A stretch of 55,949 nucleotides of DNA, filler included, from Sphacelaria rigidula (lineage: Eukaryota): the NCBI GenBank assembly GCA_964200075.2. It is 3 parts of 3 records of this genome, joined end to end, with 100 filler letters (N's around TTAATTAATTAA, not from the genome) between each part and the next. Parts side by side here need not be neighbours in the genome. Positions count along the whole stretch, not along the records: positions 18,685 to 37,267 come from CAXNAA020000833.1; 2 more parts are not named here. One strand, 5' to 3'. Under the pieces are notes generated by a model. The model saw only the letters and a list, made by a program, of their open reading frames with translations, searched no databases and had not been told where the DNA came from. The position numbers and the translations under genes are program-made. This document shows, in pieces, positions 11,291 through 37,367 of this stretch (position 1 is its first letter; the number at the start of each line of letters is the position of its first letter).

Positions 11291-12811
11291 GAGCCCAACT
11301 AAATATAGAATACAAGCCCGAGGAAACGGCCTCATGAATGTGTTCTGGAAAACATGAAGAAGGTGAAGAACAAAACTCACCCGGAACACGGCTAGTTTTA
11401 CCGCCGAGTATTTTGTACGCAATATATCTAGTTCCCTCACCTCTTTGGTATACCGTGGCACGACGGCTTCCTTGTGAGTGCCAGGAAACGAGCGTTTTTC
11501 CAAACTGACGTGCTCCACATCGGTGCTGTCCGAAAAACACCAGTGAGAGATGCTGTGCAGAAGTCTTGGTTGACCACAGTAGTCAGATTAAGCTGCAGGC
11601 TGCGGAAGCCCCCGGTTTGTGCGATCTTGCGGTCTCTTCATGGCTGTCTTGAGGGCCCCGACAACGTCATCCTTTACTTCTGAGGTTAGGTCGTCGAGGA
11701 GCTTGTTGAGCGTCGATTACCCCGGCGTAATCCGGCGCAAACTCCGCGATGAGCATCCTGACACCGACATCGTCGAGAGATGCCCACGGTCGACCGTTGA
11801 CGCACCGTATGACGAGCTTGCGGTGCAGGTGCTTCGAGTCTTCCGTTGTGAACAGCGGCCGCACGCTGCTCAAAATAGAAAAATATTTCTTTCCAGAGCT
11901 CTGCTCTCCTGCAGTTGGGCACACGATAACACAGGGAGACAAGAACATACAAAATGTATAGAAAGGAGTTCGAGTGTCGTGGGGGGTGAAGCGTGCGAGT
12001 ATGCATAATATGTTGTCCTGATAAGTAGAAAACAAAACACTCAAAAATACAAAATTGGCGTTTTCGCGGGGAAAAAGTGGAATAAAAGGATGAACGCAGG
12101 ATTTGAACCAGCAGGGTAGGAGGATGTATATGCATAATATTCTATAAAAGTACATTGCAGTATATTCGAAACGGTACACAATCAATGACTCCAAACCAAA
12201 AATACTGAACTCCAGTACAACAGTCTCTAGTACAAGAGTACACTAGTAAAAAGAAGAAGTAAAACATACACCACACGATACATGTACGGTATTATCGTTG
12301 GTGCAGATAGAGTACAGCCGCACTGTATGTCTGCACTACAGAGCCATAGCACAGTACAGTACAGTATAGTAGTACAACGGGAGTAACATTATCGTACGAT
12401 ACACACCCTTGTATCATTCAGTTGTACACTGCGGTATGTTTTTATTTTGACGACCGCGGTTCTGAAAAAAACAAAATGGCTGATATGTAGACAAAACACA
12501 CAAACTCTGTACACCCAGTACAAAACACACGATACTTCTCAGTTTGTAGTACGTACCCTTCAGCTAACTTGTCTCCTGTTACAAGTGTTCGGAGCACAGC
12601 CGCCGCAAGGTTAAGTGTAGTACGGGACGTAGCACAGTTCACTAGACCTATTCTCCGAGCACTGTTACACAAGCATTGTAACTTGTAACAGCGCCGTACC
12701 GCCACACAAAATTGCCTACCGCAGACAAAACAAAAGGGGGGGAGAAGTAACCGCTACTGGCATCATTACTGCGGTATTGTTTCGGCGTTCAGTTGTTCTG
12801 CCGCCCACTCA

Positions 12812-19642: not shown

Positions 19643-22600
19643 CTTATAGTTGAACTCATCCCATGTGTACATACGCATGCGCTTTTTCCTGGGAAGAACA
19701 CGCGAAACCCTCTCTTCGCCATCTGTTGAAACGAAGTCTTTGTTGACGACGTTCATCAGCCCGAGCACGCTCGCCGCACCCTTTCTCGAAAACTAGGTAC
19801 GCAATGAGCGACACAAGCGTGGGCAGATGAAGCGGTTTGGCAAAGGTCAATGTCCCGCCAAGATACCATGTTAACGAGATGCGCCATACAGGATATGGCA
19901 TGTACGCCCTAAACGCGTAAAGTCGAACATCCCGCCAAGTACTCTTAATGGGTTGGTTCTACCTTCCAATTGCAACGGTGTGTTTTGCCACCCCAAAACA
20001 TTATTGTTGCCTGAACAGGGCACCGAGTGACGTTTGAGTGGTGTCGCCTTCCGAAACTGGGCGGGGATCAATTTTTCATTATACTTGGGCACCAGCATGG
20101 AACACAGTTGCGTTTCTGTTTGCGTCTTTCACAACTCCCAATGGGAATATGTTCCCATGTCCCCACGCCTTCCGGAACAGCTCAACTTCCGTCCATCGCA
20201 GAGAACCCCTCGCCGATTTTGCATTCATCAACCGCGTATCAATTGTACACAAATTTTCGGTCTCACCCGCCGCATTTGTTTTCTGGTTTCGAAGATGGCG
20301 AAGGCCACCACCAAGAACCCGAACCAGAATGGGAAGAAGAGGTTTCGCACCAGCCCGAAGTTGGCAAACTGCGCACACGGTATGCGATGGCCACGAACAA
20401 CGCAAAACGCGGAAGGGAACATAGCACATTTTTCACGAATACTGAAATGAGACAAAGCGGAGTATGGCCTGATAAATCCTGTGAGAAAGTGCTCCCGTGT
20501 CGTGTCCCGCCTCGAACTCCGCGATATTAACTGTCAAAAAGGGATCCATGATGATTATTTCTTGCCCTGAACTGGCCCTGTTGCAGGTTAAGGGCAACGT
20601 CCGGTTAAGGGTAACTTTTCGGTTAAGGACAAGCGGTCCGGATTAAGGGCAAGCGGTCCGGATTAAGGGCAAGCGCCCCTGACTATGGGGAAGCGCCCCT
20701 GACTATGGGGAAGCGCCCCTGACTATGGGGAAGCGCACCTGGGTAACGGGAAGCGCTTCTGACTATGGGGAAGCGCACCTGGGTAAGGGGAAGCACACCT
20801 GGGTAGGGGGAAGCGCACTTGGGTAGGGGGGAGCGCACCTGGATACGGGCAAGCGCCTCTGATTATTGACATCTGCCCCTAGCGACGGAGAAGCGATACA
20901 CGTATCGTCAACATATTCCTGAATCAGCCGAAGAATGCCAAACTGTCTAGGGCGTGCTAAGGACTCACAATACGTGTGTCTCTGGCTCGTGGGCACACGA
21001 TATAGGTGTCTCTCGCTTGTGGGCACGCGATACAGGTTAGGGTTAGGGTATCGTGGGTCCTTAGTGTAGTGCGTGAGAGGGTCGCGTGCTTAGAGGACCG
21101 CGCCGTAGTTCAAAACACTTCAGAATCGACGTTTTTCAAAACCAATCCGGCCAGTCCCTGCAGGTACTACGCCCCTGACCATAACCCCGACACTAACCCT
21201 AACCCTAACCCTAATCATAGGGATATTCAAATTTAACCACAGGGATATTCAAATTTCGATGTGGTCCTCTAAGCACGCGGTCCTCTCACGCAATAAATTT
21301 AGCACGCCCTAGAGAGTTTGGCATTCTTCGGCTGATTCGGGAATATGATGACGATACGTATATCGCTTCTCCGTCGCTAAGGGCAGATGCCAATATTCAG
21401 GGGCGCTTGCCCGTATCCAGATGCGCTCCCCCCTACCCAGGTGCGCTTCCCCATAGTCAGGTGCGCTTCCCCATAGTCAGGGGCGCTTCCCCTTACCCAG
21501 GTGCGCTTCCCCATAGTCAGGAGCGCTTGCCCCTAATCCGGGCCGTTCCCCCCTAACCAGGGGCGCTTCCCCATAGTCAGGGGCGCTTGCCCTTAATCCG
21601 GACCGCTTGCTCTTGAGCGAAAAGTTGCCCTTAACCGGGCGTTGCCCTTAACCTGCAACAGGCCCGCGTCCATTTATTTGACGTTTCAAATTGAATTAGA
21701 GTTTTGCCTGGAGAATATCCGTCACGTTCAGGTTTCGATGAGCGGTGACATATGTCGACGGACCTATCAAGGTGAAAGTCATCCTGCATCCACTAGATCT
21801 TCCCCGTGCTCTCGTAATGTCAAGTGTCACGCGTCTAAGCATCAGATCGGGATGATATATTTCGCTTCTGCAAGAATACGAATTTAACACAAGCCAACCG
21901 CGACACCGCAGCACTCAGTGTACAGAGTTGGCACCTCGATGTCGATATCTAGGGTACTGAAGAGGAGACTGTCGGTCGAAGACACCAGCTCCACACCTCG
22001 GTAGCACTGCACCACACCAGCCAGGTAGGCAAAGCGCCCCGCCCAGATATGAAGGTGCTTGTTCATCTGTAAAGGACACGCGGTGAATCAGCGGTGGGAT
22101 GTGGTGAATTGAAAATGTACCCTACATGTCGATAATTGCTATTGTTACTTACTCCACTCCCAACAAAAACGGGATCGTTGAACAAACAGACGGCTGAGAA
22201 GCCGAGCCACGAAATCCGACGTAGCACACTTGGCAAGTCCATCATCGTGCAGAAGGCAGGAAACGGGGTTTGTGCGGAAGCGACAGGAATCCTCCGAAAC
22301 TGCATTTGAAATCCACCCCAAGACGGCAATTACTGATGTTCACGCTCGATTCATTCTGGAAATAGGTCGCCCTTCTCTCCACTCAACGCTGACCTGCCTC
22401 ATGTGGAGGCAAAGTCCCGAATCGTTCAACAGGGAGGAAGACATGAAACTGTGTGCGGCATGGTGCTCATGCAGAGAGGGATACCTGGTTAAGCAGAGAG
22501 AAGTTGCAGTATTTTCCCTCCAGTGCCTTCATGCGCAGACAGCCAGAGATCACTAGGGTAGCCACGGCTACGATGAGATAAATACCCCATCTATGCGCAG

Positions 22601-28600: not shown

Positions 28601-31600
28601 AAGGCAAGAAATCGACAAAGCATACCTGTTCATACAGTGGGAACAAACATGTTAGGCTTTAGGCTTTCAGTTCGCAACCCCAAAAGTGACTGTGGAAGAA
28701 GAAACATGAGCGAAATGCTTCATATCGGAGCAACTCCCGGTAATACCACAAGCATTCAGTGAGGAGTACCTCAGTGGTCATGTAACTCACGATTGAAGCC
28801 GAATTACGTATGTAAACCAACTTCCACAGCCTTGTAATTTCTTCCCGACTTCGTGCTGCAACGTATACTAAAACGGAGCCTTCTGTGCCGTCACCGACTA
28901 CCATAGTATAGAATATATCAACCTCCTAATCCGACGGCTCCTTTGCTATGAATATGCATTGCCAGGGAGCAATGTACCTCTGGGCGATTCGGGTCGCGGC
29001 GTTGTGGTTCTTTCACTCCCAGCGTCAAGGAAGCCAGTAATATGCTGTTGTTACTCCCAGGACTCCATACACGCCGAGGGTAGTAGCGATGGAGAATGTT
29101 TGCTCTCGGTGGGGCCATCTTGCAGGGTACGGCAAAAGGTTGTACCGCTGAAACTCAGGACAACAGTACTAGCAGCGGTTTCAATCGAAAACGCGCTATC
29201 GACCGGGCGATGGGCCGTTTCGACGCAATTTCGTTTCGTTCGTTCACGTACATTAGCACGTGCTTGGCCCGAGGGACCCTCCTCATTGCGTGGCACTTTT
29301 GGGGGGACTAGGGTTAGGGTTAGGGTTAGGGTTGTCATTCAGGGGGAAGTACTCCACACCCTGGACAACAGAATACACAGTCAAAAGGTGTACTGCGTAC
29401 AGTATCGACTATTGCGCCTATTTCAACAGACAATAGATTCCATATTGTACGTAGTACACTTTTTTCAAATGGAATCTATTGTCCAGGGTGTGGTGTACTC
29501 ATGATCATGCATGCCATAGTCATAAGACCATTGACTTCGCCAGGAGGGGGGGGGGGGGGGGGCGTACTCATTCGTTGCTTGCCTTAGTCGTTTGACCGTA
29601 GACCACGCATCCCTTTCGAGACGGAGCCGACGAGGGGGGGAACGACAAACCCCACTTATTGTGTGAATCCAGCGATAGGCGCTAGACGGGCATACCTAAC
29701 ACCAATAATAATTTCCTGATCAGTAGAGCTACAACACCAAACCAACATGCATATTTGAGCGGGTCGGAGATGAACGAACTCACCAACATGCCCTCATCGT
29801 CGATATGTTTGCTGCTGATGGTGAACGCAATGACCTCAGCGGGTCGCACCTCCCACCCCAGGATGTAGCTGTCCACGAGAATGAACAATATACAATGGAG
29901 ACGAAGGTTAATGGGCATCATCACCATGATATTAGAACATGCTATAGTAACGCCGCTCTGAGTGCGTGCAGAGGCACCAGCACACCGACGTGCCAACAGT
30001 GAGATCCACAGCGGCAAGATAAACTCAAAGACCCAGAGAAGCAAGGTTCATGTTTCGGGACGAAACATGTCGCTGGGAGAAAATATTGCCGGAATCACAA
30101 GACTCTTAACCGAGAGGAAATGGCGACAACGAACAGATATGCATCTTGGGAACAAGCGCAAGACGGTGGCGAGACCAAGAGTAACCCCGAAAAATGGCGA
30201 TCAGGAATACTGTAGTGCCAACTGCACTCACTCGTCTGCCAGAGCGACCGCGTTCCTCTCCGTCGTTGTGCAGTCGGCGACACAGACCGTAATTTCGGGG
30301 GTTGTAAAGACAGCAAGGGGAAAATCCGTCATGTCCAAATTCAGTGAGATGAGATCGTGAAGCGTGGTATTCTCGACGTCCTCGATAGGTCGGGAGTGGT
30401 GGTGGTAGTGCCGATCTCCTATGAATGTTCGGAACATTTGTTCGAGCCACGCTTCCTGTCCACGAAAACGCACACGGCGCAAATGCGGTGCCACGGGGGG
30501 CAAGAACAGAAAATAAATACTTTATGTTTCCATAATGCAGGTAGTGTGAATCCTCAGCGACGAACTCGAAGGCACTTCCACTGACTTCTGGTCCAGCGAG
30601 ACGCAGCTAGAGGGTAAGCAATGCTGGGTAGAGCTATCGCGCACCTTGCATCAATCTCCTCGATTTACTCTCGAACAGCTGCGAAGATGCAAAAAAGTGT
30701 ACTGATTCCACACACCCAACAACGATACACAACATTTCTTCAGCCAAACACAACAATGATCCCTCGTTCCCAATCGACCGCCGAAATGGGATGGTTGCCC
30801 TCGAGCCCTCTGGGCAATAAGTCCAGCGTTCCCAAGTTCTGTATGAGCACCGTTCTCCACCACGCACACCTTCAGCAAGTCTCCAAGGATCCCTCTGGTG
30901 CCGCTGTCGCTGCCCTCCACCAGCGCACCCGTCACTGCATCTAGTGCGGAAATATCGCCACCGTATGCAGCGTCCAAGAGACCAGCTACGGTGGAATCGT
31001 CTGTGATGTCGAAAATTGTTTCGGCTTGGGGCAGACCGTACGCTTCCCGTGCATTATTATACACGGGGACTCCTATGCGAAGAGCGCCAATGGGTTCAAG
31101 AGCGCATGGGGGTTCGGGAGGAGGTAAACAGCAATGAAGTTCGTGAGTAATGACGCCTTACTCGATATAGAGATCAGCTGAAATAGAAAATACGACGTAT
31201 CGAATAGAGCATGGGCGTGTTTCCCCTGTTCCTACAGTCAGATAGTAGTCGGTACAATCCGCAGCGCTGACGATAAATAATATACATCAACTCTGTCCAT
31301 ACCGTGTTTGTGAAGTATGCAGATGTAAGCACAGATTAAACACGAGTACTCCACATCGAATCTCATTAGTACATGCAGTCGAGCAAAGAACGAAATCCGA
31401 GGTCCAACATCGCCAGAGTATGACACCAAACCGTTGATCGGATCGACCAGAACGACGCCTACCGTGATCCCGGCCTCTCTGCACAGCGTCGACAGGAAGC
31501 TTGAAGAGGGGCGAGGTGGTAGAAAGTGCCGCGGGGAAATGTGAATCGATCCGCAGGGAAGGTTCCAGCACGGCTCCCCTCAAAATAGCCGCCAGCCCGT

Positions 31601-33024
31601 TGCGGTCGATGAGACCGCCCACATCTTTGCACGCCTCCGCCAACTCGATCATATCCTGAAAATGAGAAAACCAAATATAGAAACGAACGATGCAATTGAC
31701 GAGGTTATGCGGAACACGACCTGAACACACAAAATCGTTGACACTGGTACCAATCGCAGCTCAGCGCTGTCTATGTCATTCACCAACGCCAAAAAAGCAC
31801 TCTAGCAGTGCTTGCACTGGTGCTTTCGCCACATGAGTGCTAGAAAATTAAAACATAGATGCCCCCCCCCATCACCCCACCGCTTTCAACGCCTTGAAGT
31901 TTTCACTCGTTTACCCATTTCACCTCGTCAGCTGGCTCGTAGTTCTCGGTTACAATCCTCGTGAAGGGGGGAATGGCTGCCTCGAAGGCAATCGCGCCAA
32001 CCGTCAAAGCAAAAACGTCCGCACCAGGGTTTATGGTGTAGTCGTAGTGCTCCGCCGTCAGCAGTTTCCTCGTGGATCCCCAGCCCCATCTCCTTGTACC
32101 CGAACCTGGCCCTCTCTCGGCCAATTCTATTTGTCGCAGTTGTCCGTACCAGTCGCGCCGAATACGAGCCCCGTACCTATCGTCGTCATCCCATAGAGGG
32201 GAACCATGGCCTCTGGTACTTCCCTCCGATTCTTGGTGTGAGTTTGTCCCAGTATGCCCAAGGCCTGTTTGGTGTTTGATGTCGTCGCCCAGCACTTGGG
32301 ACCGTAACAGCTGCTGCTGCTGCTCCTGGGTGCCAACATCCCCTGTCGAGGCGCCAAACGTATCTCGGCTGTTGTGGTTGCCATGGTGCTGGTTTCGGTC
32401 TTCTTCAAGGGCGCCTCCCGGCCCAGAACGCTCTTGCCCACGCGGAGTACCTCGTGTCAGGCGTCGGTTTGAACTGGATCCATCGCTATCTCCGGTTTCG
32501 AGAGACGATGCTGTAGTCTGGGACGCACTAGTCGTGTCTGTAGCGGACAGTGCGGATATGACCAAAGGCAATGCCTTGTTCAACCAGGTGATGAAGCCAT
32601 TTAGGTGACCGATTTATTCCATCTGCATCATTCTGTATTTAACATCTACATACTTCACACACATGGTGATATATGCTTGATTCACTCCGGATCAAGCCGC
32701 TGCTCTCAAGCTGCTGAGTACATGACTATGGATTCACCGATGCGATTCCCTCGTATTTTAGAGCTCGACTGATACACATTCGCTCGTCCGTACTGCAAGT
32801 GCTCTCCACAGAAACATTGCGGCAATACCCAGAGATACTACTCAAACCGCTTAGCTACCAAGCACGCAGTTACAGAGTCAGTACTCCCTGCGCGTACCGA
32901 CGTATTGATTGTCGTCGTCAAGATCAACGACGACCGAGGTTTCCAGCAAACGAATGGTGAAGTCGTGCTGCACGACGTGTTGGTAGCGCGCGATCGTCCA
33001 GCCACGACACGCCTGGTAGATATC
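19643..33024 (-). CDS. Partial multi-exon gene: heme peroxidase-like domain + DOMON + cytochrome b561 + start of cytochrome b5-like domain (membrane redox fusion protein)
   Basis: 15 GT-AG exons splice in frame with no stop (2544 nt, 848 aa): 33024-32898, 32537-31924, 31655-31463, 31072-30870, 30455-30232, 29868-29784, 28126-28020, 27348-27231, 26975-26832, 23570-23476, 22991-22848, 22590-22485, 22066-21935, 20368-20267, 19792-19643. Peroxidase motifs: DIYQACR..IARYQH, VDAVQRGRDHGVPVYNNAREAYGL, EQMFRTFIGDR. DOMON motifs: GIGFGGTEM, GQHPNTNRG. Four b561 His. b5 N-terminus RMYTWDEFNYK. Start and stop exons not found. Confidence 0.88.
20267..23570 (-). CDS. Exons 10-14 of the fusion gene: cytochrome b561-type transmembrane domain
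   Basis: LLHGCLMLFSWMLIAPLGIYFARY, WHRRHAELM, SEHAIWG and KHLHIWAGR give four His at b561 positions, followed by a fifth TM helix FPFWFGFLVVAFAIFE. Confidence 0.87.
20579..21660. mobile_element. Non-autonomous foldback transposon with TGT...ACA ends and 5-bp TSD GGCCC (Ginger-like), intronic
   Basis: GGCCC|TGTTGCAGGTTAAGGGCAACG ... CGTTGCCCTTAACCTGCAACA|GGCCC; ~380-bp inverted arms with tandem 20-bp GACTATGGGGAAGCGCCCCT units; central TTAGGG/CCCTAA tracts. Confidence 0.8.
24225..25302 (+). mobile_element. 5'-truncated RTE-clade LINE (ORF2 C-terminus, T-rich 3' UTR, (CAAT)n tail), intronic and antisense to the host gene
   Basis: ORF 24253-24690 reads LYGCPTWTL..HHKLLLRVVGF..IRKRQLWFAGALVRQ..RLPKRVM, a typical post-RT region of RTE elements; frameshift near 24680, continues to 24890; tail 25285-25302. 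Confidence 0.9.
25330..25470. mobile_element. Solo piggyBac-like terminus (…TTCCCAAAGGG|TTAA)
   Basis: GGG end followed by TTAA; homologous to 37765-37905. Confidence 0.55.
25956..26393. mobile_element. ~440-bp palindromic MITE (copy 2), intronic
   Basis: ACAGCCGTTCATCGAAATTGAGGATGGAG ... CTCCATCTTGAATTTCGATGATAGGCTGT; internal arms shared with copy 1. Confidence 0.85.
26832..29868 (-). CDS. Exons 6-9 of the fusion gene: DOMON domain
   Basis: YILGWEV..IAFTI..GMLGIGFGGTEMVKAQDFVIC..CIDR..WTSVTFLR..DIIYAYR..GQHPNTNRG. Candidate heme ligands Met and His are present. Confidence 0.85.
29355..29492. mobile_element. 138-bp MITE with CACACCCTGGACAA TIRs and an imperfect 8-bp TSD
   Basis: aagtactc|CACACCCTGGACAA ... 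TTGTCCAGGGTGTG|gtgtactc (flanks match 6/8). Confidence 0.75.
29493..29627 (-). repeat. Dispersed repeat modules A and B, adjacent (other copies: A 14168-14241 and 47182-47253; B 18-72 and 14764-14817)
   Basis: A: GCTCCGTCTCGAAAGGGATGCGTGGTC..ATGAGTACGCCCC. B: GGTCAAT..TTATGACTATGGCATGCATGATCATGAGTACACC. Confidence 0.8.
30232..33024 (-). CDS. Exons 1-5 of the fusion gene: C-terminal half of an animal-type (peroxidase-cyclooxygenase family) heme peroxidase-like domain
   Basis: QRGRDHG-x-P-x-YN-x-x-R-x-x-x-GL signature; AYGGDISALDAVTGALVE; GDR motif; TLHDLI..N..P..VF domain end. Confidence 0.88.
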
Positions 33025-33378
33025 CTGGCAAAGGCGCGACCCCGTAGCACAAGGGAACGAAACATAGCTGAGAGGGGATCACGAAGGAACATCAAGGCTG
33101 GGGTGTCGTACCTTTTGTCGCCAAGACAGCGATCCATTTGACGTGTTTTCTGCGGTCTGATTGACGACGCGGTGATATGAGAGCATTTGAGCAATATTGA
33201 GCAGTGGGTTGTTGAGATCACGGTACATCGGTTCGGCCGTGATGCGTGTATCCACACACCACAACCTGTAATTGGTGCGAACCCAGCGCGAGACGGGCGG
33301 CTTTGATACGCAGGGTGCTACTCAAGCACCGTTTGCGTCGCTGAGTATGCGACGGACAGGCCACAGGTAGCAATATTC

Positions 33379-34991
33379 CACACCCTGGGCAATACAATAT
33401 GTAATATATATTGCCCGCTCAATATGTGTACGCGTCGGGTGGTCGATATACATCGGGCGAGCAATATGATGGCACGAGAGAGGGTCAATATATACTGGGT
33501 GGGAAATATGTCAAGGCTCGCGACATGCAATATATATCGACCGGAAATATATCACGATAAGCGCCACCTCAATATATATTGGCCGAGTAATATGTTGGTG
33601 CGAGAAGGCACCAAATATGTATTTGTCGAGTAATATATTGGCTGCCACACGAGGTCAATATATATTGATGATTCAATACACTCAACATCCCAAGCGCCAA
33701 TATATATTGCCGCCCCAATATGCCGGGCGTCAATGCGTCCAATATATATTGGGCGTACAATACACGAGGGAACGGATGGTCACAATAAATATTGATATCG
33801 AAATATATTTTGATTTTCAACATGTAGATTGCAAAGTGTATTGGAATTAGTATGGTGGGCAACTCTATGTTCGCGGGCGCCATTGAAAGATGCATCATCA
33901 TATGCCGAAAACGCTCAATACATTCCTCCGCGAGTGTGTTTAATATATATTGGCTGCACAATACCTATGCGATGAGCGTGCGCAATATATATTGGAAAAA
34001 ATATATATTTTGCATGGTTTGCGTTCAATAAGTATAATGGTAACAATATGCTACGCATCGCTTCGACTCAATATATATTGACACTTCAATACATACACGA
34101 CCGGCATGCACAATATATATTGAATGTTTTATTCCCGGAGCAAAGGTACGCCCAATATATATTGTCATACATTACTTCATGATCATGACACGAGCAATAT
34201 ATGTTATCGCTCCAATGTCTCCGAGGACATTTCAAAACAATACATATTGAAAGGACAATATTTGCGCTGGCTCCCATACAAAATATTGGTATCATATTGG
34301 AACATCTTGTATTGTCCAGGGTATAAGCAACACAGCCCCGGTGACCACAGGGGTACGAAAAGGCACATATCGACCCGCGTTTTCTGTCATCGTGGTGTTT
34401 AGCCAAGATATATTAATTACATGCTGGGAAGGCGATGGGCGACCCCGCACCGGTGGCCTCTTAGGTATCAGGAGGCATATACACCAGGTCGCCTCTTCTG
34501 TCACCATATTTTCAAACTAGTACGTGTATGTATATTTATATATGTCAAACGCATTCGACTACTCTACATAGTAATGCACGCGAACTTCTACGGCTCCCTT
34601 TGAAGCTTTTCCCAATCTGCACGGGCTCCGGCATCCATCGCGTCTGGAATTTTCTTAGAGCATATACCATACTTATGATATCCATATATTATATTGATCG
34701 GCTAATACATTGGCACCCACGTAGATCCAATATATATATTGACCGGTCAATATGTTCTCACCATTGCGACCCTAATATATATTGGTCGTGCAATATGCCA
34801 TCACACACACTGCCCCAATATATATTGATGGGACAATATGTGTTCAACTCCACAGCACCAATATATAATGGGCGCGCAATACGTGTGCATTCCAAGGGTA
34901 CCAACATATATTACGCCGGCAATATATCGCGAAATTCCAATATGATCGACAAATATATGTATTGGGGACATATTGTATTGTCCAGGGTGTG
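33379..34991. mobile_element. 1.6-kb non-autonomous TIR element (23-bp TIR, 8-bp TSD; hAT- or P-like) carrying a phased repeat-spacer array
   Basis: caatattc|CACACCCTGGGCAATACAATATG ... CATATTGTATTGTCCAGGGTGTG|aaatattc (flanks match 7/8); extra internal right-end copy at ~34303-34322. Confidence 0.8.
33402..34925 (+). repeat. Regularly interspaced array, unit CAATATATATTG-N6-CAATAY-N18/19 (42-43 bp period) with non-repetitive spacers
   Basis: Palindrome starts at 33402, 33444, 33486, 33528, 33570, 33613, 33656, 33698, 33740, 33783; 33941, 33983, 34026, 34069, 34111, 34153, 34195, 34238; ~34685, 34728, 34773, 34816, 34859, 34902. Confidence 0.85.
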
Positions 34992-35324
34992 AAATATTCC
35001 CCTGGCAATACGAGGCTTGTCATGACTTGTGGGCAAGAATTGGTCACAAGTGTACGAATTGAATGTTGTATTCAGGCCACCTCGAGCGTGCTACGAGCTG
35101 GGCCGCCCAAGAAGCCACCAGATTTGTTGAACGCATTTTCTTCGCTCAATATTGGATCGTTTTCGATAAATTTTTGACACAATGTACAGGACGTATCTGC
35201 GAATACCTGTTCTGAAATGTTCTGTGGCCAATAACTCACGGAGAAAAACAAAAAAGACAGGGGATGAAAGATTGTGTATTCGCACATTCGTCCTGTACAT
35301 CGTGTCACAATTTCATACGTCGGG

Positions 35325-35812
35325 ACGAGCACGAGTGTGACTCGTGGCACTCGCACTCGTTGGGCTGCTCGTTGGCCGTGAAAATTCATAGAGCGAGCAC
35401 TCAAGTCATTGCTCGCTGTGGAGAAAATTAATAGGGCGAGCAAACGAGTCATTGCTCGTTGGGGAAAAAAATAATAGGGCGAGCACTCGAGTCATTGCTC
35501 GTTGGGGGGGGCGTACCCATTTGTTGTTGCTCGTTGGGGGAAAATGTTAATGGGGCGAGCACTCGAGTCGTCATTACTCGTTGTGGGAAAATGTTAATAG
35601 GGCGAGTTTTCGAGTCATTGCTCGTCGGGGAAAGAAATAATAGGGCGAGTACTCGAGTCATTGCTCATTGGGGAAAAAATGAATAGGGCGAGCACTCGAG
35701 TCATTGCTCGTTGTGGAAAAAATGAATAAGGCGAGCACTCGAGTCATTTCTCGTTGTGGAAACAATTAATAGGGCGAGCACTCGAGTTATTGCTCGTTGT
35801 GGAAAAAATTAA
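35325..35812. repeat. ~38-41-bp minisatellite (TAGGGCGAGCACTCGAGTCATTGCTCGTTGTGGAAAAAA..AA), left block
   Basis: About 12 tandem units, read directly. Confidence 0.9.
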
Positions 35813-36859
35813 CCCCTTTGGGACCGGGCCCCCAGAACGATCAACGAGGCTGGTTAGGAATGACGTGTCTGACGTCTACACGAAACAGTGCCACGTTGAT
35901 CAAAATCCGCGTATGTAACCGCAGGATTATGAGGAAGAGCGAAAGTTTCATCCAATCTATTTTCAGGTGCAGGGTGCGCATTAGGTAATGTACATCTGTA
36001 GCGAGCAGTATGGGTTGCGGTAGATAACTTTCAAAAGGATGCGGCGACCAGTGGGCCGCCCGCCACTTGTGGCCTTGGATGATGATACTGTCCCCATCAC
36101 CTTGCCACACAGCCCTTTGTCGTCAGGGTGGGCCGCCATTTCCCTCTTTGTTGTATGCAACAAATTCTCTTCAAAGGGCGTTGGCGTTGCGGCGCACATA
36201 CATACGATACAGTGCAGTACAGTACAGTACAGTAAGTGCAGTACGCCTCTCCGGCTGCAGCAGCAGCTGCCGCTGCATACTCCCTTCCACGTTCTAGGCA
36301 GTTCTCAGCGATGGAGATCAGCTGCCTATACACAGCTTGTTTATCCTCGCCCACAACATATACATATTCACCGTGTTCTGCAAGTCATCGGCAGAGGGAT
36401 AACCATGATTCATGACGGTAGCTCCTTTATCTTTCGACGGCACACCTGGGTTCAGTGCCTCATGAAAATGACCACATTGTGGCATGTACACTCCTTCCCG
36501 GTTTTCCCACTCCACCCTGTGTTGGTGTAATTACTACGTTTTAGTAAAGGCTGGCGACCCAAAAAAACTCCTGGGAAACCCCGGGAACGCTATACTGAAT
36601 GCAAGTAATACGATAAGCCATGCTCCGAGCACCCTGGTTTCAGAAACCTGGGAAGGCTTATCTGGGCCAGTGATAGGGCTCCACACCATCTTGGCAGTGA
36701 CATCACACTCGGCAACAGTCCCCGCGCTGGTCGTTCGGGTCTGGTCGACAAATTTCGCATCGCCGTGATTGGGCAGTTCGCTCCCTGACTTATGTTTTAC
36801 AATTTCACGAAGACATGGTCAACCTCGTGTTAGTGAGGGGTCGGTCCCATGCAAAAGGG
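35813..36859. mobile_element. Non-autonomous piggyBac-like insertion at a TTAA in the satellite
   Basis: TTAA|CCCCTTTGGGACCGG ... CGGTCCCATGCAAAAGGG|TTGA; no transposase inside. Confidence 0.65.
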
Positions 36860-37267
36860 TTGATAGGGCGAGCACTCGAGTCATTGCTCGTTGTGGAGAA
36901 AAAAATAGGGCGGGCACTCGAGTCATTGCTCGTTGTGGAAAAAAATAATGAGGCGAGCATTCGAGTCATTGCTCGTCGTGGAAACAAACTAATAAGGCGA
37001 TCACTCGAGTCACTGCTCGTGGTGGAAAAAAATAATGAGGCGAGCATTCAAGTCATTGCTCGTTGTAAAAACAAGTGATGACTCGAGCACACGAGTCATT
37101 GCTCGTGGTGGAAACAAACTAATAAGGCGATCACTCGAGTCGTTGCTCGTTGTAAAAACAAGTGATGACTCGAGCACACGAGTCATTGCTCGTTGTAAAA
37201 AAAAGTAATGACTCGAGCACACAAGTCATGCTCGTTGTGTTTTCGAAAAGCATCCACGAGTGCACTC
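36860..37267. repeat. Same minisatellite, right block, running to the contig end
   Basis: The unit resumes exactly after the insert at 35813-36859. Confidence 0.9.
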
Positions 37268-37367
37268 NNNNNNNNNNNNNNNNNNNNNNNNNNNNNNNNN
37301 NNNNNNNNNNNTTAATTAATTAANNNNNNNNNNNNNNNNNNNNNNNNNNNNNNNNNNNNNNNNNNNN
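37268..37367. other. Artificial contig linker (N44-TTAATTAATTAA-N44)
   Basis: Identical 100-bp linker. The flanking contigs are 18583 and 18582 bp, consistent with size-sorted concatenation. Confidence 0.97.

Follow-up and report, generated by a model that had tools for sequence, protein, structure and literature searches.

Phased CAATAT half-sites beside the ends of a non-autonomous Sphacelaria rigidula transposon: probable protein-binding sites rather than a guide array

Does a layout of repeats and "spacers" inside a eukaryotic transposon mark a guide array, or does it serve the transposon itself? The question arises at positions 33379–34991 of a Sphacelaria rigidula window (the whole stretch of DNA analysed here, 55,949 bases), where short palindromic repeats alternate with inserts of fixed length and an initial annotation had proposed either a CRISPR/TIGR-like array made into small RNAs or a helically phased protein-binding scaffold. 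Our analysis argues against the guide array and makes the protein-binding reading the probable one.

Layout of the element and its array

The element is 1613 bp long (33379–34991) and bounded by 23-bp terminal inverted repeats (TIRs) which agree at 22/23 positions (33379–33401 versus 34969–34991). A repeat finder returned inverted-repeat arms of 31 nt with 94% complementarity, comprising the TIR and an outward extension. Outside the TIRs lies a putative 8-bp target-site duplication (CAATATTC and AAATATTC, 7/8 matching) that is judged on this one copy only, and the AATATT core of CAATATTC is palindromic, such that the octamer can also be read as the outward extension of the TIR. Duplications of 3, 5 or 9 bp do not fit the flanks. 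The TIRs and the flanking duplication bear out the DNA-transposon setting that had been proposed, and with these features, dispersed copies and no transposase gene the element belongs among the non-autonomous cut-and-paste (class II, TIR) transposons, although its length is above the usual size of a MITE. Array and TIR sequence make up three quarters of it, and the sole internal ORF of at least 150 aa (34465–34992) has no Pfam match. The features are as follows.

33371–33378, no strand: putative 8-bp target-site duplication, left copy, CAATATTC; 7/8 match to 34992–34999
33379–33401, plus strand: left TIR, CACACCCTGGGCAATACAATATG; from inverted-repeat search and depth
33402–33825, plus strand: block 1, 10 units, starting directly at the left TIR; spacings 42, 42, 42, 42, 43, 43, 42, 42, 43
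33826–33940, plus strand: TIR-distal stretch with decayed unit remnants only (e.g. CAAAGTGTATTG at 33832, CAATAC at ~33916); family member by depth (bins 33791–33952)
33941–34280, plus strand: block 2, 8 units of the same polarity, reaching the internal TIR copy; spacings 42, 43, 43, 42, 42, 42, 43
34281–34325, minus strand: internal copy of the right end; TIR core 34303–34321 with 1 mismatch in 19, tip CACA changed to TATA
34326–34729, plus strand: non-array internal segment of the family; summed depth as high as in the array (bins 34358–34681); overlapped by the ORF without Pfam match
34730–34944, plus strand: block 3, five 43-bp units that keep this polarity, near the outer right TIR; TRF period 43
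34945–34968, plus strand: decayed last unit beside the TIR, ATATATGTATTG at 34953 with 3 mismatches; placed by unit register
34969–34991, minus strand: right TIR, reverse complement CACACCCTGGACAATACAATATG; from inverted-repeat search and contig breakpoints
34992–34999, no strand: right copy of the putative duplication, AAATATTC; 7/8 match to the left copy

Each unit consists of the palindrome CAATATATATTG, six variable nucleotides, CAATAY and a further 18–19 variable nucleotides. At up to 2 mismatches, CAATATATATTG occurs 30 times in the window, where 1.92 occurrences (sd 1.15) are expected by chance and 0/100 shuffles reach 30; the region 33402–34913 holds 24 of them. In register, the array comprises 23 well-formed units (10 + 8 + 5) plus 2–3 decayed ones at block edges, and all 20 anchor-to-anchor spacings are either 42 bp (10) or 43 bp (10), in agreement with the ~24 units of 42–43-bp period first described. 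These units do not form one array from 33402 to 34925, as had been thought, but three blocks (33402–33825, 33941–34280 and 34730–34944) parted by two non-array stretches (115 bp and 404 bp) and by the internal TIR copy. Every block starts from or ends at a TIR copy, both non-array stretches are TIR-distal, and the inner half of the left TIR already contains two CAATA(T) half-sites. The polarity is single throughout, as claimed: in 18/23 units the third half-site follows the palindrome after 6 nt, on its downstream side, and the upstream mirror image of this arrangement is found in 0/23. Contigs of other copies bridge position 34325 at ~87% identity, and the composite with its internal TIR is therefore ancestral to many copies rather than a private nested insertion.

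Motif and linkers within and between copies

Contigs of four public sequencing runs were aligned to a 2.4-kb stretch around the element and those of at least 80% identity were counted, a cut-off below which any sub-families with other linkers would fall. The three DNA-type runs, from two studies, contributed 10,366 (X1), 8,622 (X3) and 9,983 (X4) contigs. Summed depth within the element was 7,043–209,363 as against 30–92 in the adjoining single-copy bins (33224–33304 and 35006–35086), figures which are not a copy number; it starts to rise in bin 33305–33385 and has returned to flank level by bin 35006–35086. Fifty contigs of X4 continue past 34991 into unlike sequence with an agreement among continuations of only 0.41, and this disagreement points to many different flanks. 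The element is a member of a very high-copy, dispersed family. The remaining run (X6), which we guess to be RNA, gave 203 contigs, which cover the element at low depth and are absent from bins 33062–33304 and 35006–35086.

Contig pieces of 280–360 nt cover 6–8 consecutive units together with their spacers, with 38–66 differing letters (~80–87% identity). Such identity over 6–8 units would be impossible if only the 18/42 motif columns matched, and the spacers therefore belong to the family. The initial annotation had asked whether spacers are common to other copies, and they are, in thousands of contigs at family-level identity, an outcome that the annotation itself had named as counting against a guide array; because the set recurs in this way, the "spacers" are fixed family sequence.

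Between the units of this copy the picture is very different. In the unit alignment, columns 1–12 and 19–24 carry 0.7–2.0 bits, while all others carry 0.44 bits or less apart from column 26 (a pyrimidine, 0.84 bits), and the only conserved columns spell the hexamer CAATAT in three placements. Between-unit identity is 78.7% in motif columns versus 27.2% across all variable columns; for columns 27–42 it is 25.8%, against 25.2% when shuffled, and 400/2000 shuffles reach it. With these columns at chance and every spacing at 42 or 43, the description of the spacers as mutually unrelated and of fixed length is upheld. They were also described as GC-richer, which is correct in direction and mild in degree (55%, and 59% in the N6, versus ~50% for the window). 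When blocks 3 and 2 are paired from the TIR inward, 69/90 motif positions are identical and 30/120 variable ones, such that the two right ends (outer and internal) share TIR and motif and not linkers. Across family copies, the run contigs show ~36 indel places versus ~436 substitution places; because linkers so saturated with substitutions should otherwise have drifted in length, their length appears to be under selection.

The motif does change in single copies. At 33445, 33451 and 33454 ~97–99% of the summed depth contributed by other copies shows the consensus palindrome, and all of the copy-specific departures (these three, 33941 and the lack of a C after 33545) have the consensus in most other copies. 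Since copies decay at these positions after insertion, the motif has no intrinsic immunity to mutation.

The adjoining DNA contains a second element with same-polarity 43-bp arrays at 35381–35812 and 36867–37239, which flank a unique centre. It has another palindromic core, GCGAGCA...TGCTCG, and is unrelated in sequence to the CAATAT element. Its units are 80% identical throughout, and its arrays look like an earlier stage of the array type seen in the CAATAT element. The CAATAT element lies just beyond the end of an intron-split haem-peroxidase gene on the minus strand. A fragment of this peroxidase matches eukaryotic peroxidase clusters only in a protein atlas. Among 30/31 window ORFs of at least 150 aa searched against Pfam, An_peroxidase (haem peroxidase) was the only family found and there was no transposase; the ORF left out (11686–12141) is nested within a tested one.

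Guide RNAs, DNA structure, decay or a host factor

On paper, the likeness to CRISPR or TIGR is clear enough: conserved repeats alternate with two variable stretches of fixed length per unit, as would suit a transposon-borne array in which the variable parts of small RNAs guide a protein. TIGR arrays have a 36-nt unit with two 8–12-nt spacers, box C/D motifs and an adjacent Nop-domain Tas gene, and occur in prokaryotes and their viruses (PMC12045711). The unit described here, in contrast, is 42–43 nt, its variable parts are 6 and 18–19 nt, there is no second motif resembling the box C/D consensus, and the setting is a eukaryotic transposon with no Nop-domain or cas gene nearby. That no cas or tas gene is present had been noted from the start, and no Cas, Nop or other such domain was found in the 30/31 ORFs, a search that intron-split genes could escape. 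Whereas CRISPR spacers are acquired from invaders and differ between loci or strains, the variable parts here recur as a shared set, at family-level identity, in thousands of other-copy contigs across three runs and two studies, with no sign of acquisition or turnover. The target search proposed for the spacers, run on the rest of the window, gave matches no better than those of shuffled spacers (mean best 13.48 of 18–19 positions versus 13.43–13.65). The strand does fold better than its shuffles (z −3.0 and −4.3), although this is expected of any repeated palindromes; as these pair trivially among themselves, we rejected the z-scores as evidence for an RNA. No Rfam family reached threshold, the only hits being to two miRNA models at 22 bits versus gathering scores of 67–70. 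The inverted repeat ATATTG-N6-CAATAT, said to be capable of forming a hairpin, is indeed present, but it does not covary: 82.4% of cells are paired versus 84.0% for shuffled columns, and compensatory changes number 0. Nor was such an array seen in viral, prokaryotic or metagenome collections among the matches listed. A scan for the palindrome followed by N6 and CAATAT gave 6 viral and at least 119 metagenome loci, each with a single site; among the matches listed (130), no locus had more than 2 palindromes, and two palindromes 28–32 nt apart were found at 0 viral loci and, as single pairs, at 4 prokaryote loci, which is the chance level. A single match to the TIR in viral contigs (L126) was to ordinary, coding-looking DNA with no array, where by our own estimate about one chance match is expected. 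The element is almost certainly not a guide array: the spacers of its repeat/"spacer" layout are shared by the copies, and we give the production of guide RNAs from it next to no chance. The same symmetry could instead act as DNA, with structure rather than sequence as the signal, the palindromes extruding as cruciforms or as single-strand hairpins while the element transposes or replicates. Each unit does contain a 12-bp palindrome that is perfect, as well as 6-bp inverted arms separated by 6 nt, and the two symmetric double changes in the palindrome arms noted earlier are real. However, they are not above chance (57–81/500 shuffles reach two double changes) and one of them, at 33444, is private to the copy studied here, while the stems comprise only 6 A/T-rich pairs and would be weak, and the N6 hairpin shows no compensation. 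We regard a structural signal as very unlikely.

A functionless origin deserves closer attention. If an old minisatellite had been amplified by slippage as a 42–43-bp unit and then decayed, its uniform polarity would be expected from simple tandem duplication, the homogeneous array of the neighbouring element would be a ready parallel, and tandem arrays are common in non-autonomous elements, to judge from reports on Galileo (PMC3573991) and on a Porphyromonas MITE minisatellite (PMC4596501); the palindrome would then owe its persistence to mutation or structure, for instance to conversion between palindromes or to low mutability, and not to any reader. Neutral decay, however, cannot hold 18/42 columns at 79% while the others reach chance, nor can it hold 20/20 spacings at 42 or 43 bp. 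The private hits in this copy speak against an immutable motif, and the right ends have retained TIR and motif while losing their linker likeness. On balance, a decayed minisatellite is unlikely. We find it similarly improbable that the transposon spreads sites for a host factor, the lattice serving gene regulation or chromatin organisation as an enhancer, insulator or silencing platform. The position of this copy just past the end of the minus-strand haem-peroxidase gene would suit such a role, as would the many phased sites, which favour cooperative binding by any dimeric factor, and a number of sites above the known need of transposition. Against this, all blocks abut TIR copies and the inner half of the TIR bears the same half-site, which ties the motif to end recognition; furthermore, a second family nearby follows the same plan with another core, and this is more easily explained by family-specific transposases.

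Predicted binding sites and their counterparts at other transposon ends

We consider it likely that 33379–34991 is a non-autonomous cut-and-paste transposon in which the lattice represents predicted TIR-proximal binding sites for a transposase or accessory protein encoded elsewhere. The helically phased protein-binding scaffold put forward at the outset fits the abutment of the blocks on the TIRs, the retention of both motif and spacing across linkers at chance identity, and the 43-bp plan of the neighbour. We infer that selection for transposition keeps motif and period and that the reader is a protein. Each unit would present three CAATAT half-sites, two head-to-head as the 12-bp palindrome and a third 6 bp further on. 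The period would correspond to four helical turns and would place successive sites on the same face of the helix, such that cooperative binding by a multimeric protein is possible. The uniform polarity would make the left and right ends differ, and the 6-nt and 18–19-nt stretches would be linkers of which the length alone matters. To our knowledge, however, 24 units over ~1 kb are far beyond the need of any characterised transposase. Many of the sites may be redundant or serve otherwise, because the Hermes transposon keeps ~70% of its activity when its interior repeats are mutated (PMC10368747).

A bolder and rather doubtful extension is that the lattice serves as an assembly track for an unusual, higher-order transposition complex, along which the transposase or a partner polymerises from unit to three-half-site unit using a four-turn ruler (42–43 bp). 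Such a ruler would characterise one lineage-specific group of transposons, and sharing it would explain why two unrelated adjoining elements both carry same-polarity 43-bp arrays beside their TIRs. If true, the family would show in nature a transposon end that is recognised by a filament or ring stack of protein in place of a few sites.

Whatever the reader of the sites, a false lead is removed: a eukaryotic repeat/"spacer" layout is no evidence of a guide array when the spacers are the consensus of a transposon family. The family also offers a very clean natural view of the features that selection would retain at the end of a transposon, namely a half-site, a three-site grammar and a four-turn spacing, with the bases of the linkers left free. 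Its high copy number near genes may matter for annotating the genome of this alga. It should lend itself well to a search for the matching transposase and to tests of phased subterminal sites in transpososome assembly, a role which the Hermes work leaves partly open (PMC10368747).

Searches of the literature by sequence string and by topic found no description of this family in the text covered; within the same scope the palindrome string had no match, and matches to the TIR-tip 10-mer were to unrelated, primer-like strings. Of the superfamilies considered, hAT elements are expected to make an 8-bp duplication, found here at 7/8 in one copy. Duplications of ~8 bp are also made by P, Novosib, Zisupton and some Mutator-like elements. 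The TIR starts with CACAC, unlike the characteristic hAT start, and the octamer does not fit the hAT target consensus. An autonomous hAT partner would encode a BED-finger, RNase-H-like transposase with a hAT dimerisation domain, and the 30/31 window ORFs searched hold no transposase domain. CACTA (En/Spm) was rejected as an assignment, its 3-bp duplication being absent, with TTC and AAA as the bases outside the TIRs.

Several known systems nonetheless resemble parts of this architecture. The subterminal repeats of CACTA (En/Spm) elements are bound by TNPA, and the ends of Tn7 and Mu are multi-site; all three share with our element many copies of one short motif near the TIRs and functionally unequal ends, whereas their motifs are irregularly spaced, number 3–14 per end and, in CACTA, occur in both orientations. 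Related in general form are Galileo (PMC3573991), the Porphyromonas MITE (PMC4596501) and the coral CMITEs (PMC2872659), which by their abstracts are likewise gene-less, TIR-bounded and high-copy with a repetitive interior, the interior of CMITEs being more conserved than expected, suggestive of a role in transposition. Their units resemble one another as a whole by these abstracts, whereas here only motif and spacing are kept and 24–25 nt stand at chance.

A close counterpart is the hAT transposon Hermes (PMC10368747). Its transposase uses BED domains to bind short subterminal repeats, the first two of which make up a quasi-palindrome that adjoins the TIR and is bound cooperatively. Exact phasing is crucial, a shift of 1 bp impairing cleavage, and the ends are asymmetric with ~220 bp per end required in cells (PMC10368747). 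Subterminal short motifs, a TIR-adjacent (quasi-)palindrome, unequal ends and an 8-bp duplication are therefore common to Hermes and the CAATAT element. The two differ in regularity and scale: Hermes has 4-nt motifs, irregularly spaced and numbering 17 and 14 (PMC10368747), whereas the CAATAT element displays 6-nt half-sites in a three-site unit, repeated 23–25 times over ~1 kb with a strict period of 42/43 bp.

Architecture of the element and its surroundings

The + strand of 33402–34944 is built of units comprising CAATATATATTG, six variable nucleotides, the half-site CAATAY and a further 18–19 variable nucleotides. These were initially annotated as one array; they form three separate blocks within a 1613-bp transposon copy, each touching a copy of the terminal inverted repeat (TIR).

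Features of the element, in window coordinates (array units on the + strand)
33379–33401: left TIR, 23 bp, CACACCCTGGGCAATACAATATG
33402–33825: array block 1, touching the left TIR
33826–33940: non-array stretch, away from the TIRs
33941–34280: array block 2, touching the internal right-end TIR copy
34303–34321: internal TIR copy (19-nt core), inverted relative to the left TIR, 1 mismatch
34326–34729: non-array stretch, away from the TIRs
34730–34944: array block 3, touching the outer right TIR
34969–34991: right TIR, inverted relative to the left TIR and 22/23 identical to it

The window holds three TIR matches where chance predicts 0.01. Two half-sites already stand in the inner half of the TIR, with the first palindrome directly adjoining. 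The outer TIRs are adjoined by CAATATTC and AAATATTC, an 8-bp duplication (7/8 positions identical) whose palindromic AATATT core leads the repeat finder to extend the inverted repeat through it. A target duplication length of 8 bp, read from one copy, is likely rather than secure. The duplicated octamer itself contains the half-site CAATAT, and the single-copy flank right behind the right duplication (35000–35011, CCCTGGCAATAC) equals the TIR core minus one G; the element possibly prefers targets resembling its own sites, or the likeness is coincidental.

Directly to the right lies a second element (approximately 35320–37267), bounded by TIR-like sequences, with same-polarity tandem arrays (35381–35812 and 36867–37239) flanking a 1-kb unique centre. 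Its 43-bp units, built around an inverted-repeat core (GCGAGCA-N9/10-TGCTCG), are 80% identical between copies over their whole length. The period and plan are those of the CAATAT element but the sequence is unrelated, and the element looks like an early, still homogeneous stage of this architecture. It is truncated at the join (37268–37367), where N runs stand on both sides of the TTAATTAATTAA linker.

Between the two elements lies a hairpin-type repeat (35166–35316), its 41-nt arms 85% complementary and separated by 69 nt. In the sequencing runs it shows 'opposite strands' joints and very high summed depth; Rfam yields just one sub-threshold miRNA-model match to it, and it is probably a foldback MITE. 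On the other side, exon-like minus-strand ORFs (30651–31760) match animal haem peroxidase (PF03098; E 2.4e-07 and 0.0016); this ORF run reaches 33317 and the transposon stands just beyond its last member. Elsewhere in the window, two mutually inverted 20-bp tandem-repeat arrays (20588–20856 and 21393–21607) form a foldback-like element with CCCTAA-type telomere-like repeats between them (21173–21219), and beyond them TAGGGT occurs four times (29309–29333). Two further repeats are a (CAT)60 microsatellite (46182–46361) and a tandemly duplicated 206-bp sequence present in 1.9 copies (697–1086).

Array units and other copies of the family

The palindrome, allowing up to two mismatches, has 30 matches across the window, of which 24 fall within 33402–34913; chance expectation for the whole window is 1.92, and 0/100 shuffles reached 30. 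Read in register, the array comprises 23 well-formed units, with another 2–3, decayed, at block edges, and all 20 anchor-to-anchor distances are either 42 bp (n = 10) or 43 bp (n = 10). Information content is 1.0–2.0 bits in columns 1–12 and 0.7–1.6 bits in columns 19–24, while the remaining columns hold at most 0.44 bits, column 26, a pyrimidine, being the one exception. Between-unit identity is 78.7% in the motif columns and 27.2% over all variable columns. Because columns 27–42 lie at the shuffled level (25.8% vs 25.2%; reached by 400/2000 shuffles), the slight excess over the full set of 18 spacer columns (27.1% vs 25.0%, z 3.3) stems from the motif-extending columns 25–26. In 18/23 units the palindrome is followed downstream by a third half-site, whose mirror image upstream is seen in 0/23. 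Counts, shuffles and column identities thus bear out the unit as initially annotated, with its palindrome, fixed spacing, mutually unrelated spacers and single polarity.

Logan contigs from four public runs were aligned to 32900–35300 with an identity floor of 80%, below which copies with other linker sets would score and so fall outside the comparison. Contigs at or above the floor numbered 10,366, 8,622 and 9,983 in the DNA-type runs X1, X3 and X4, part of them deriving from a second repeat at 35087–35300; those of X1 divide into 934 at ≥99% identity, 1,931 at 95–99%, 4,010 at 90–95% and 3,491 below 90%. Summed depth is 30–92 beside the element (33224–33304 and 35006–35086) and 7,043–209,363 inside it, rising and falling at the TIR tips. 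The family has very many copies, summed depth being no copy number. Contigs of 280–360 nt span 6–8 consecutive units at about 80–87% identity (38–66 differing letters). Since a match in the 18/42 motif columns alone would give about 50%, below the floor, the "spacers" are part of the family sequence. Contigs from other copies also bridge the internal TIR copy at 34325 (about 87% identity), so the composite 1.6-kb form is itself the transposing unit. Loose contig ends, such as those of 39 X1 contigs that diverge before 33505, hint at family variants.

At the places where the window copy departs from the motif, other copies restore it. Three changes (33445 G>A, 33451 C>T and 33454 C>T, in 97–99% of summed depth) convert CGATATACATCG to the consensus palindrome, 33941 T>C gives back the first C of its unit's palindrome, and a C inserted behind 33545 in about half of local depth regains CAATAT.

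Guide array or protein-binding sites

The initial annotation offered two readings, a protein-binding scaffold and a CRISPR/TIGR-like array processed into small RNAs, and we reject the latter. The array strand has low RNA folding z-scores (-3.0 and -4.3), which follow trivially from repeated palindromes. The proposed ATATTG-N6-CAATAT hairpin pairs no better than shuffles (82.4% of cells vs 84.0%) and shows 0 compensatory changes. Two symmetric double changes in the palindrome arms are indeed present, but 57–81/500 shuffles reach that count, and one is a change private to the window copy. Spacers shared family-wide are the first part of what the annotation itself had set against a guide array; the second, a lack of targets, holds within the window, where the mean best spacer match is 13.48 of 18–19 nt vs 13.43–13.65 for shuffled spacers. 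An Rfam search gave no match near the gathering score. The initial annotation noted no cas or tas gene, and Pfam searches of 30/31 window ORFs of at least 150 aa found haem peroxidase as the sole family, with nothing of the Nop, Cas or transposase type. Scans of viral, metagenome and prokaryote collections gave single chance sites and no arrays among the matches listed. TIGR arrays, as described, have 36-nt units with two 8–12-nt spacers flanked by box C/D motifs, adjoin a Nop-domain gene and occur in prokaryotes and their viruses (PMC12045711); the element differs from that account in unit size, spacer sizes, box C/D motifs, Nop gene and setting.

The best explanation, which we hold with moderate confidence, is that the element, one of a very abundant family, is a non-autonomous cut-and-paste transposon whose TIR-proximal arrays are phased protein-binding sites; the scaffold reading is supported in that motif and spacing are kept and linkers are at chance. 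The argument is evolutionary. Inserted copies decay throughout, motif included, yet the family sequence keeps 18/42 columns and the unit length, with 24–25 linker positions at chance identity. The two right ends within the element have TIR and motif in common (69/90 columns) but not linkers (30/120). With linkers saturated by substitutions and about 36 indel places to about 436 substitution places among copies, linker length should have drifted, and it has not (20/20 spacings). The 42.5-bp period is about four helical turns, placing the sites of successive units on one helix face. The second element, with the same plan around another core, likewise supports family-specific protein sites over guides. 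The binder would be encoded elsewhere, as a transposase or an accessory protein. Uniform polarity would make the left and right ends unequal, and would also result if a single unit had been duplicated in tandem.

Comparison with known transposons

An 8-bp duplication is compatible with hAT, P and a few other superfamilies. The start of the TIR departs from that typical of hAT TIRs. A CACTA-type 3-bp duplication is ruled out by the flanks. A search of the main text of papers for the motif strings returned nothing relevant, and the element is apparently an undescribed non-autonomous DNA transposon with putative subterminal binding-site repeats. In the Hermes study, two subterminal repeats form a quasi-palindrome beside the TIR and are bound cooperatively by BED domains, cleavage is impaired by a 1-bp shift, and interior repeats are largely dispensable (PMC10368747). 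The element resembles Hermes, so far as described there, in its half-sites within the inner TIR half with a palindrome directly next, and in its unequal ends, here through uniform polarity. DNA transposons with subterminal binding-site repeats are a known kind, and what distinguishes this one is its strict four-turn lattice.
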